A stretch of 64,000 bases of DNA from Schmidtea nova (lineage: Eukaryota): NCBI GenBank assembly GCA_044892505.1, contig CM097883.1, positions 159,774,001 through 159,838,000 on the forward strand, given 5' to 3'. Position numbers and translations under genes: made by a program. The first letter of the stretch is position 1. Every line of letters starts with the position of its first letter. Below the pieces are notes generated by a model that saw only the letters and a list, made by a program, of their open reading frames with translations, ran no database searches and was not told the origin of the DNA. Positions 25,601-28,520 of the stretch are shown here, piece after piece.

Positions 25601-28520
25601 CATACGTCAAGCTCGTCAATACTACCTCCCTATTCACTTCCTTTTGGATCAACTCTTCAAAAACCTTTCTCTCACAGAAATTATTTCCTCTACCAAATCG
25701 TTGTACTACTTCAGGAAGCCTATTTTTCAATTCTTTGACTATCTCTTCCACATCTTCCACCACTTGCAATTCTATCTCAAACATTGGATATATCGTTTTA
25801 AGCAGATGCTTTAATATCTGTTTTGTTTCATCTACTTCTTTTTCAACTCTTACCAAATTTCTCTTTATTTCATACAAAGTTCTAGGTTTACCATTTTTAT
25901 TGCTAACTTCATTAAGCACATCTGATTTTTGTCTTTCCGCTTCCTGTACCTGATCTCTCACTATTGGATTCTTCTGAAAACTGCCATCTATAATAGTCTC
26001 ATTTTCTTCAGTTTCTTCGATTTCCTCCTCCCCTTCGTCTGACTCTGAATTCTCTAATTCTTCCATTCTTCCTACTTGTACTTCCTTCACCGCTACTATT
26101 CGATTTATTACATATCCATTACTTCCCTCCATACTTAAATATCCCTCTTCATTTACTTCTAACGGTAAACACCCGCAATCATATAGATACTCGTCATCAT
26201 CTAACAGTTCCCCTTTATACCTCAACGTTATGATTCCATCCGTTCCTAACATTTTTGAAGCTCTTCTACGTACCCTTTTTACCTTTGTGCACCAATGCTC
26301 TTCAGTATATTCCGTCTTTCCACGCTCTTCATAATCTATTGCTATAATTAAACGATTCTGCTCGACTCTATCTTTTCTAAGCTCTTTACCCATTTTCCTC
26401 ACTAAGCTTTTAAGCTTTTTACTGTATCTAGTTCTCCCATATAAATATGGTCGTATTAAATTCGCGATTTCTACTTTATCTTTAGATTCAAGCTCACATT
26501 CCTCGATCATTTTTAATTTGTCATTTATTTCATTTTCATCTCCACTATATAATGCATCATTTAACTCTCTTATAATTTCTACTGGATCTCTTTTAATTGT
26601 CACACAATCTTTTTGTAGCGTAATTATTTGCAACTCGTTTTCATTACCTGGAATAAACCCACAATCTATTAAATATTCGTTATCTTCTAATTTTTGATTT
26701 TTAAATCTCAACTCTCTCATTAATCCATCTCGTTTGTCTGTTAATTTATTTTTTAAATCTCTCACACAATCATTGGCTTCACAACGTATACAATTTACAC
26801 TTTTATCCCTCTCATCAACAACATCAATAAAAATAAAATCTAACCATTCCTTTTCTCGAAACATTTTCCCAAATATTTTCATCATATCTTTTATTTCGTC
26901 TCTATCCTTTGAATTCACTTCACAATAACTTGCACATACATTAATTACACTTTTTAATTTCCTCATATTCAATGACATTTTACTCAATTCTTTTAGCGAA
27001 CTCATTATTTTGGATGAATCTTCTCTTCTCGCTTCTATTAATTTTTCAATTCTTGTTATAATCATTGTCGATAAGTCAATTCCTAGATCATCTTTGACAC
27101 ATTTTCTTTTCGTTTCAGTTTCCATCATTCCTTCTGAGTCATACATCATATGATTATTTACTTCCTCATCGGATTCAAATTTTGACATAAGCCGATCCAA
27201 ACGTCGACCTATTTCTTTAACTTCGCTTTCAATTCTTTCTTTGAAATCATCTGGCTGAACAAAAGCTACATTATCATGCATGGATTTATCAGTTTGGAAT
27301 CTGATTGTTTTCTTTAGAATTGGTCTTTGAAATTTATCATTATTTCTTGGGCACGACCTGGCCATATGTCCATAACCTCTGCATGAGTGGCATTGGATTT
27401 GTCCTTGCAAATTGACTTTGTCCCTCTGCGGTGATGGTGATGTCGATGGAGATCTTGACTTGGCATAACAATTTCTCGATACATGTCCTTTCTTTCCGCA
27501 ATTGAAACAATGCATATTATCATTTACTCGTGGATTACTGTCATTAAACTTGTTAAACATTTTATCATCATTACCTTTCATCCAATCCGGCCACATTCGC
27601 TTTGGACTCCTCTGCATGTTCTCGTTGAACCAACATTGATTACTAGTATGACCCATCTTTTGACAATTACTGCATTGAATTGGAGTTGGACTTCTTTGGG
27701 ATCTATTCTTGAGCCAACATTGATTCACATGATGTCCCATTCTCTGGCAATGGCTGCATTGTATTGGCATCTCTTTTTCAATAATTGGTGTATTAGTTGG
27801 GTGACTTGATTGAAATCTAGGTTTGAATTTTGGTGATGGACTACTAGGTAGCTGAACTCTGTTAGTTCTGATAGGAGTTACTGATCTTTCTCGTTTCGGT
27901 TCCATAACGGCGAAAGATTCTGAATTTGACTGAGTGCTTTTCAGATTAATCTCGATCTTCATAGCCTTTTTGATCAATTCATCAAAGTTGTTAAAATCGA
28001 CATAACATAGAGCCTTATTGATTTCCCTTTTTACTCCGGATAAGAATTGATCTTGTAGCAACTCCTTAATTTGTTTTGCTACTTCGGGTTGATCTGTATC
28101 GAATGCCTTCTCTGCAAGGGTAGTTAAATGGTAAGCAAACTCACTTACGGATTCATCTTGTTTTTGCGTCCGAGTATAGAACTTTTGGCGCATAATCCTT
28201 TTGATATCACCTCCGATCAATTTAGTCGCTAATGAGTCTTTCATTCTCATCCAGTCATTTCCGATTGTCCTTTTGTCAATTTGTTGCCATGCTTCTCTGG
28301 CTGCTCCTTTTAAATACAAGGGCAATCTTTGTACCATCGTGGCTTGGCTCCATCCATACGCATTGGCATACATGTAATAGTCTGCCATGAAATCGACAAA
28401 TTCAACTGGATCTCCTCCATATTGGTTAACTGGTAGCTTTTGACAACTAGCGAAATCATTGCCATTTCCTGCATGACTTGTCGACATCGGCGCTTCATCA
28501 TTACTATTTGAATTGCTCAT
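18441..28520 (-). CDS. Single 3359-aa Gag-accessory-glycoprotein-Pol-membrane-protein polyprotein
   Basis: Uninterrupted ORF; CX2CX4HX4C x4 (27351-27758), PR LLDSGSS (D at 23052-23054), RT YIDD (21831-21842), RNase H TDAS (21393), IN HX6H..CX2C, DIVGP, TDQG, VERFN, GPY. Confidence 0.97.
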   Translation of the reverse strand: MSNSNSNDEAPMSTSHAGNGNDFASCQKLPVNQYGGDPVEFVDFMADYYMYANAYGWSQATMVQRLPLYLKGAAREAWQQIDKRTIGNDWMRMKDSLATKLIGGDIKRIMRQKFYTRTQKQDESVSEFAYHLTTLAEKAFDTDQPEVAKQIKELLQDQFLSGVKREINKALCYVDFNNFDELIKKAMKIEINLKSTQSNSESFAVMEPKRERSVTPIRTNRVQLPSSPSPKFKPRFQSSHPTNTPIIEKEMPIQCSHCQRMGHHVNQCWLKNRSQRSPTPIQCSNCQKMGHTSNQCWFNENMQRSPKRMWPDWMKGNDDKMFNKFNDSNPRVNDNMHCFNCGKKGHVSRNCYAKSRSPSTSPSPQRDKVNLQGQIQCHSCRGYGHMARSCPRNNDKFQRPILKKTIRFQTDKSMHDNVAFVQPDDFKERIESEVKEIGRRLDRLMSKFESDEEVNNHMMYDSEGMMETETKRKCVKDDLGIDLSTMIITRIEKLIEARREDSSKIMSSLKELSKMSLNMRKLKSVINVCASYCEVNSKDRDEIKDMMKIFGKMFREKEWLDFIFIDVVDERDKSVNCIRCEANDCVRDLKNKLTDKRDGLMRELRFKNQKLEDNEYLIDCGFIPGNENELQIITLQKDCVTIKRDPVEIIRELNDALYSGDENEINDKLKMIEECELESKDKVEIANLIRPYLYGRTRYSKKLKSLVRKMGKELRKDRVEQNRLIIAIDYEERGKTEYTEEHWCTKVKRVRRRASKMLGTDGIITLRYKGELLDDDEYLYDCGCLPLEVNEEGYLSMEGSNGYVINRIVAVKEVQVGRMEELENSESDEGEEEIEETEENETIIDGSFQKNPIVRDQVQEAERQKSDVLNEVSNKNGKPRTLYEIKRNLVRVEKEVDETKQILKHLLKTIYPMFEIELQVVEDVEEIVKELKNRLPEVVQRFGRGNNFCERKVFEELIQKEVNREVVLTSLTYAILEIGTYAFVKSKELDDLIDTAARMLNEYLINWVKEKGGWKTLCPPLDTKENEEGARQLCEKVRLKTKRIGIFPWLMFTMIILCTVITQTTSLVAYDCSQTEMGKIYSVVDMSECPGAYPSKLKVENDVKYHVYQESDLRRTKVRECSVKHTTFVFYCGKWSHSSLIKVNAIPRPVEIFPENCLTAFQTGELKISSEIRLKAKLNHRIRETVVVKGIMKANGDCEGEPYKMNGKMVDKTVVFEEYVTELREFEGAFDDDTGKLQTHPFCNMKQTNCQTGESILVYNVKVNECNLAFLKTMNFKEIIGEQFQERPDSFSMNYKSKEAIKSTPIMTRKMSAVLMSTSPMDSMRFIKKEVTNKCGRILYTTNYKGVYVSKGIVEDAKTKIHVNDIKLTHYFNNKIDYLFHFSQDIMENVYREMILNDCKLNKEILRNRMAMAVTNPNLVAPMLISENGVFARIFGEALYSYKCKEIAVKIAKYEKCTNELPVSVGGKLRFMEPITRILLEEQTKPKILQCNRLLAPLYRLTPDSWIALPDYRGVKTPDKLELTNLEYLVNFTSLNKMAQTGLYASEDIEEAQRNLLFPSKKERVISEMVDTILPNGEGKVNYEYLLTPDHFKRATYKTMEKIWGKFMFLGQACAGLIGIYVIAVTMKVIVSQVLSAHRIYAISGWSWKIIISCIPFLARFFITNHQYKEMANVRAQLRKDQKSEESLCQSEEINSQNNNNDGGNTESKYYRKGILKNKTEPETRFLLEPMPKLSGIDTLTRWYTPTFVPTAPVYPGEKLKEMKPLDDIQSGTEKIEPTSAEIERKNMLGLPCSYALMTMVTGGKQPRIDVLFNDRKVQALLDSGSSHTIVSEELLMYQEIKEMKPTNKRIKSMSHNLLNIIGKVQAKLKIGDQEISHWVVVMRKSPVKCLIGMDVMEQLKGISLDLNTGKLVKGQTGEVIEEIGEVFLNQMVEVPSKSEIIYYADVTNAPDEECIFEPNHKLIEKYDLPMCDELVRVKNKLVPVRIANCGTKSIQMQPKTKLGKLKKIEAEEVQKLPRNIKIYKQPQVTSKDLTDEQREEFTALLMKYKSVFARHEYDLGLTQIIEHEIPLLDETPIKLRPYRIPYVYQEESDRQIKAMKEFNIIRDSSSPFSSSIVVVKKKDGDLRFCVDYRKLNQVTRKDTYPIPVPQEMFDQMGEVQFFTVIDLNKGYNQFKVKEDDKRKTAFSDGKGLYEFNVLPFGLTGAPATFQRGMNFVLRDIPHALVYIDDIIIFSGSFQEHLKDVETVFKRLLKANLKIKPSKCEWGKSEVVYVGHIISRRGLQPNPENVEKIKNYPIPKDVDQVRQFLGLAGYYRKFIKNFSHVAQPLNILLKNQTKFKWMTAQQNAFDILKESLLKQPILRCPDFKRQFILMTDASNFALGAVLGQQVEGEKDHVIAYASRTLKPHEKNYSTIEKETLALVYGITTFRQHLIGRKFIVFTDHNPLQWLMKHRDSASKLIRWSIALQEYDFEIKYRSGKSNANADALSRINDENNDGRNEINYENTIFMAIKTVNNLKELQNDQENDIELNQLRQHAVTIKKESDWKHVVEEKHKYIVHDGLLKCVKNENLLIIVPTKHRRSLLLLYHDGALGGHLSARKTLSRLKQKYYWDTMEQDVKQWCHTCEICLTRRNTGKKIKVPLKPMPVPQAPMEMTAMDIVGPLPETTNGNKYIIVFCDYLTKWPEAYPMPNQKAETVAKIFVENIIFRYGAPKKLLTDQGTNFQSDLFKSITELFGIMKISTSPYHPQTDGLVERFNGTLINMISSYVNRKQKDWDLYIKPCLFAYRNAVNESTGETPFYLMYLRCNNMPIDLKFQSPISQYMDVSDYKVIMQERLQSVWVQAGLKIKHHQEAYKECYDKRAHAHDIKIGDLVYVNKPEPTKGLSVKLQRPFKGPYVVCDATETNLKLRPQNNKKAGTIVVHVNRCKKVPVEEFKQYPLRSKRNENEVIKRKYNKNPAPSSYINKILLISTVMMLNVLCTNAVRFLPSVATKRIPLLERINTFATCTQIVWIYSCEKDEEVEINNLLNYFEPPVKLKYNNNYHVARHLTMNYKYPWLVAQLDPKKNTTEIRNIIRLEIWTKRWKNFVSIEPSINSINVYWEPQESQQVKTIFQNYAIDTLNSRKPFVNYINLKLFQTYNIVIHYYEKTLYENGTDTENQWVKVHTSQQTITLINETNRVQFHIYHQAIKVTRQTDPNQKAVIYCYGKMQAILDSKRQSQTIIFQQSQSNPMSKLVLVKIKYYRRTLYSNLWQITFVENKLIQVSYDEAYPNDSHQYQTTTFLNNIPINKSIVNNQTKLFLKTNNEKMCITLIIIIISFAVILTVIMAIVLCIFEKSFQSPANQSEPSRPWFVYDETFV
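23520..25395 (-). other. Chuvirus-like envelope glycoprotein domain between Gag and protease
   Basis: Signal-like IGIFPWLMFTMIILCTVITQTTS, then LVAYDCS..YSVVDMSEC; Cys-rich ~550-aa ectodomain; C-terminal FMFLGQACAGLIGIYVIAVTMKVI..IYAISGWSWKII pattern typical of chuviral-type G proteins. Confidence 0.8.
25460..25890 (-). other. Bcl-2-like domain within the polyprotein
   Basis: BH2-like YLINWVKEKGGWKTL (W..GGW at 25479-25502), BH3-like IKRNLVRVEKEVD, degenerate BH1 VFEELIQKEVNREVV, followed by a hydrophobic anchor. Confidence 0.7.
26160..26846 (-). other. Two ubiquitin-like domains within the polyprotein
   Basis: FIFIDVV..CEANDCVRDLKNKLTDK..LRFKNQKLEDNEYLIDCGF aligns by eye to ubiquitin (IFVK..VEPSDTIENVKAKIQDK..LIFAGKQLEDGRTLSDYNI). 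The second copy reads ..TKVKRVRRRASKMLG..LRYKGELLDDDEYLYDCGC. Confidence 0.7.

Follow-up and report, generated by a model that had tools for sequence, protein, structure and literature searches.

Giant Ty3/Gypsy retrotransposons of planarians, of the Burro/GYPSM1 kind, encode a single polyprotein in which Gag and CCHC knuckles are accompanied by a ubiquitin-like domain (Ubl) before BCL2 and an in-frame Env before the protease. In Burro, according to PMC6431247, MATH and BCL-2 flank a Ubi2/SUMO-like motif (PF11976), and Env stands between BCL2 and the protease. The element described here lies in 64,000 nucleotides of Schmidtea nova DNA (GCA_044892505.1, contig CM097883.1, positions 159,774,001 to 159,838,000; hereafter the window), where it spans 13953-29765 (15.8 kb); its ends are TG...CA, and its target duplication measures 4 bp. 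Its one long open reading frame (ORF) reads Gag, four CCHC knuckles, the module that is our subject, an acidic linker, a Bcl-2-like region, a hydrophobic segment, Env, protease, reverse transcriptase (RT), RNase H and integrase. The long terminal repeats (LTRs), the target duplication and the order from protease to integrase are those of Ty3/Gypsy (Metaviridae), and a single ORF with Ubl, BCL2 (a sub-threshold match) and Env between Gag and protease is the Burro arrangement. Burro, however, exceeds 30 kb and encodes ~4900-5100 residues, whereas the window element has 869-bp LTRs and 3359 residues, and a Pfam scan of it found no MATH/TRAF, BIR, ankyrin or dUTPase; we have therefore filed it as Burro-like. 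This architecture by itself makes a planarian flatworm the probable host.

A repeated bundle and ubiquitin-like module

The original prediction for this DNA placed two ubiquitin-like units, separated by a helical spacer, between the nucleocapsid and a Bcl-2 region; it did not recognise the Burro-like host element, a kind for which a Ubl ahead of BCL2 had been described earlier. Both units are present at that place, residues 559-812 of the ORF. The spacer is helical as stated, but it is a repeated and probably TND-like domain (TND, TFIIS N-terminal domain), with a copy (H1) upstream of the first unit. The intact Gag-Env-Pol frame thus holds two homologous helical and ubiquitin-like units:

26856-27074, minus strand: H1, first four-helix bundle, TND-like, residues 483-555, outside the region originally delimited
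26613-26843, minus strand: U1, first ubiquitin-like beta-grasp domain (predicted), residues 560-636, no Gly-Gly
26373-26585, minus strand: H2, second four-helix bundle, residues 646-716, the former spacer
26079-26363, minus strand: U2, second beta-grasp domain (predicted), residues 720-814, with an insert before the last strand
26187-26201, minus strand: invariant acidic DDDEY loop of U2

The bundles match one another in hhalign at 96.1% and the whole repeats at 98.8% (E 1e-16; cross controls, 0.1-0.4%), so the repeat unit is a bundle plus a Ubl, ~160 residues, occurring twice. The junctions between bundle and Ubl have predicted local distance difference test (pLDDT) values of ~87-91, compared to <50 for the linker between repeats, which suggests that each pair forms one rigid piece; the two domains may well act as one unit.

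Both Ubls almost certainly adopt the beta-grasp fold, judging by their predicted models, which show the beta-beta-alpha-beta-beta-beta order of the ubiquitin-like superfamily, and on this point the original prediction held. Their identity to solved Ubls is 7-22%, and the window units reach 15.2-16.5 of the 25.4 bits of the Pfam ubiquitin / Rad60-SLD cut-off; ten of 26 members match these families at E<=0.5 (best 2.8e-5). A Gly-Gly (LRGG) end follows unit 1 in none of 24 cases and the unit 2 core in one of 26, and neither window unit has one. Fold and missing Gly-Gly together support the view that these are integral, non-conjugatable Ubls, while the proposed analogy with pestivirus-type processing fails for lack of the LRGG end.

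We numbered 12 first and 15 second units (15 of 26 aligned rows) by way of host ubiquitin, taking the register from the shared motif. Each window unit has Arg at the equivalent of ubiquitin I44; position 44 is aliphatic in none of the first units (three have Tyr), is aliphatic or Met in 9/15 second units, and K48 is kept in 0/12 and 0/15. The window units therefore lack the hydrophobic I44 patch of ubiquitin-receptor ligands. The invariant residues lie away from that patch, at the start of helix 1 and in the loop equal to ubiquitin 51-60; they include the acidic loop (51-55) and Gly at 60, and a further invariant Gly sits in the last helix of the bundle. An invariant Arg/Asp pair corresponds to K27 and D52, which form a salt bridge in ubiquitin, and may be internal.

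The bundle is probably of TND ancestry; the TND signal appears in fold tests and sequence tests alike. A locally built profile from 16 host TNDs gives a weak sequence signal, H1 being the best of 73 polyprotein profile windows (score 22.6, probability 19.6%). None of six bundles matched PF08711, and DSSP assigns four helices where a TND has five, the short helix of the TND falling in a 5-residue gap. The module differs from the TND/LW/IBD family (TFIIS, MED26, Elongin A, LEDGF, HRP2) in its four helices, its fusion to a Ubl and its place below the Pfam cut-off, and the Trp of the TND last helix is Gly in most element bundles; we class the bundle as TND-like, not as a TND. Host TFIIS-N (PF08711) genes form arrays in the host genome, G000 (C1:216.19-216.25 Mb, ~29 matches; C2:283.99-284.27 Mb, ~7), and of the host sequences a lone relative (L161) comes closest to the bundle of locus L130, which is described below.

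Relatives, selection and an element without detected Gag

The element's own genome holds at least 149 matches (149/149 scored, of 2375 candidates) with identities from 100% down to 60%, and distant-relative queries found further families with open frames of ~3230-3550 codons. The tandem module is kept across families in which RT-RNase H is 55% identical and the module ~20% (20-25%), and profile or alignment located the module in 9/9 long-ORF families examined. The ratio of non-synonymous to synonymous substitution (dN/dS) is 0.14-0.35 in seven of eight pairs, the eighth being saturated, and stays far below 1 in each of the four domains; the module is under purifying selection.

A search of 1.84 billion representatives gave 11 matches, nine module relatives and two polyubiquitin-type proteins; two of these representatives with Gag or knuckle matches carry a single unit. 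Among 300 pattern stretches, the metagenome scan added eight relatives, which share a single assembly prefix. A tree of 23 units, four of them long rows, has a branch (94/90, not starred) with all ten first units to one side; the three single units group with second units, and one old duplication fits this pattern. An AT-hook-like RGRP motif occurs between the Ubl and the Bcl-2-like region in 8/26 proteins scanned (L066, L069, L072, L073, L075, L081, P0004, P0009), none of them in the window's clade, where only KPR stands at a similar place (3/7 proteins).

A single module also occurs in an LTR element of ~25 kb (L129:4555 to L131:9852; G000:C1 ~119.235-119.260 Mb), whose 4.1-kb LTRs are 99.85% identical and which has a second copy at L134-L136. 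It is high-copy, with at least 150 matches at 96-100% (150/150 scored, among 2974 candidates). One bundle and Ubl (L130/L135; 25.4 bits, compared to <=9.7 in 1000 shuffles) are followed immediately by an aspartic protease and ankyrin repeats; the last-helix Trp is present here, and the DDDEY loop is reduced to its three Asp. The other ORFs encode TRAF (RING, zinc finger, MATH), BIR-RING and coiled-coil proteins. We found no Gag, Env, RT or integrase, either by tblastn of the window polyprotein or by a Pfam scan of its five ORFs of at least 280 residues, searches that a very divergent Gag could escape. The ~25-kb element looks like a non-autonomous element built of accessory genes and, because it keeps module and protease without particle genes, the module would be a released accessory protein rather than a part of the assembly. 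Pfam labels its single unit PF11976 (E 0.019), and for this reason the window module probably equals the PF11976 motif of Burro, with which it was compared by description.

Possible roles of the module

The remaining features of the window element give the setting:

28897-29765, minus strand: 5' LTR, 869 bp, one mismatch to the 3' LTR
13953-14821, minus strand: 3' LTR, 869 bp, with a purine-rich tract before it
18441-28520, minus strand: single 3359-residue ORF in the order given above, with a C-terminal extension
27351-27758, minus strand: nucleocapsid region, four CCHC zinc knuckles
25971-26075, minus strand: acidic linker between U2 and the Bcl-2-like region
25461-25883, minus strand: Bcl-2-like region, sub-threshold match
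25335-25391, minus strand: hydrophobic segment (hydropathy) just before Env, a putative signal peptide or membrane anchor
23388-25370, minus strand: in-frame Env, Monjiviricetes-type fusion glycoprotein (Pfam PF24664, E 1e-87)
16618-18024, minus strand: ORF2, 468 residues, ISG20/ISG20L2-like exonuclease (E 2.6e-5), missed by Pfam

As the LTRs differ at one base, the insertion is recent. The hydrophobic segment adjoins the Bcl-2-like region and could double as Env signal peptide and Bcl-2-like tail anchor. The extension after integrase (~370 residues, 18444-19553, minus strand) ends in a strong hydrophobic segment (residue 3312) and fell into no assigned family. Just upstream of the full copy, window 1-4465 is an incomplete further copy of the element's 3' region (3421 bp at 100% identity), and 60535-61779 (minus strand) holds a DUF4371 ORF (E 4.5e-15), probably a DNA transposon gene.

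We tentatively propose, as the most likely reading, that the module is an adaptor, freed by the element's protease, that docks on host transcription or chromatin factors. The segment would be cytosolic relative to the Env signal anchor, and the element's own protease would cut it out. Cellular TNDs dock on short, disordered acidic TND-interacting motifs of elongation and chromatin factors (PMC9987994); by analogy, the TND-like bundle could bind such motifs in host factors, which might favour the element's transcription or chromatin placement, and the Ubl would supply a second surface other than the I44 patch. A working TND in the bundle would give a retroelement its own docking domain for transcription factors, which is relevant to the continued activity of very large LTR elements in animals whose PIWI silencing is strong; Burro1 is shown to be PIWI-controlled in PMC8532177.

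A bolder form of the proposal, which we consider decidedly doubtful, is a self-encoded LEDGF-like tether, in which the captured TND-like bundle and Ubl (with the AT-hook-like motif in some lineages) would link integrase or the pre-integration complex to transcribed chromatin and would be supplied in trans by the Gag-less, integrase-less 25-kb satellite. HIV and the lentiviruses borrow a host TND; the element would carry its own.

HEAT fragments tie with TNDs as matches to the bundle, which could then be a generic HEAT-like hairpin pair in an adaptor of host cell-death or ubiquitin signalling that, with the Bcl-2-like, TRAF, IAP and ankyrin cargo, keeps the host cell alive. Eleven aligned copies have a Bcl-2-like region after the module, the Gag-less element keeps the module beside TRAF, BIR-RING and ankyrin genes, and PMC6431247 proposes interference with apoptosis and ubiquitination. 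However, co-occurrence of genes is no proof of one pathway, the TND signal recurs in both kinds of test, and none of the best 50 rows of the structure comparison held a solved chain matching bundle and Ubl together. We regard this role as possible but on balance unlikely.

Rather improbable is a structural or folding role in the polyprotein, with the module serving, between nucleocapsid and membrane anchor, as a stable spacer, a regulator of the protease or a matrix-like scaffold. The position between nucleocapsid and Env signal anchor (directly before the protease in L130/L135) suits it, and several invariant residues, such as the Arg/Asp pair, may be internal. Yet the module is kept in a high-copy element without detected Gag or Env, and the invariance of the acidic loop among families 20-25% identical points to a partner, though L130/L135 keep only the three Asp.

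Mimicry of ubiquitin, as a deubiquitinase decoy, proteasome adaptor or stand-in for a late domain in budding, is very unlikely. The predicted beta-grasp folds and the hydrophobic position 44 of most second units fit it, and the window Gag part lacks PTAP, PPxY and YPxL; according to PMC2958808, a Gag-ubiquitin fusion can take over from late domains, but this needs L8 and I44. With Arg at 44, no K48, no Gly-Gly and so little identity to solved Ubls, decoy, shuttle and budding roles are unlikely for the window copy, less so for relatives with a hydrophobic residue at 44; the decoy and proteasome-adaptor roles originally suggested are further weakened by invariant residues away from the I44 patch. 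That the module is a neutral relic of a captured host gene, as its divergence far faster than that of RT in a distant clade might imply, is scarcely credible given the low dN/dS, the confident fold prediction and its retention in every long-ORF family examined.

Comparison with known systems

The window element has two units, and a helical partner domain is not mentioned for Burro in the accessible text of PMC6431247. The GAG-ENV-POL Ty3/gypsy errantiviruses of flatworms, nematodes and bryozoans (gB-type Env) likewise place a class III-type Env between Gag and Pol; 'ubiquitin', 'Bcl' and 'Burro' have no occurrences in the main text of PMC13524379.

Integral Ubls are found in coronavirus nsp3. 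That domain, ISG15, OASL, NFATC2IP and the pestivirus inserts share with the module the beta-grasp fold, the tandem arrangement or a place in a viral polyprotein; unlike them, each element Ubl is preceded by its own bundle and has no LRGG cleavage end. A different high-copy element in G000 (L112, L113, L115-L120) has a near-canonical ubiquitin, ending in LRGG in 7/8 loci, which is fused in frame to an Hsp70-like stretch on one side and a BEL/Pao-like Gag on the other (both labelled by eye); in contrast to the window Ubls, this is a true pestivirus-style insert. The LTM-UBL of LUBAC (HOIL-1L/SHARPIN), with a helical hairpin before the UBL, may bear some resemblance to the module; PF25393 gave no match in G000 (one candidate scored), and LUBAC LTM-UBL was not listed in the structure comparisons.

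In the literature covered, which left subscription papers and supplements outside its scope, we found no report of a TND-like bundle or tandem module, and TND and retrotransposon terms were not paired. The Burro Ubl, previously a weak profile match without a mechanism, now appears as a duplicated, selected bundle and Ubl unit that is kept even without replication genes, and as a small, foldable domain it is amenable to testing. A Ubl at this place was already in print; what is added here is its TND-like partner, its duplication and an element made up of accessory genes.
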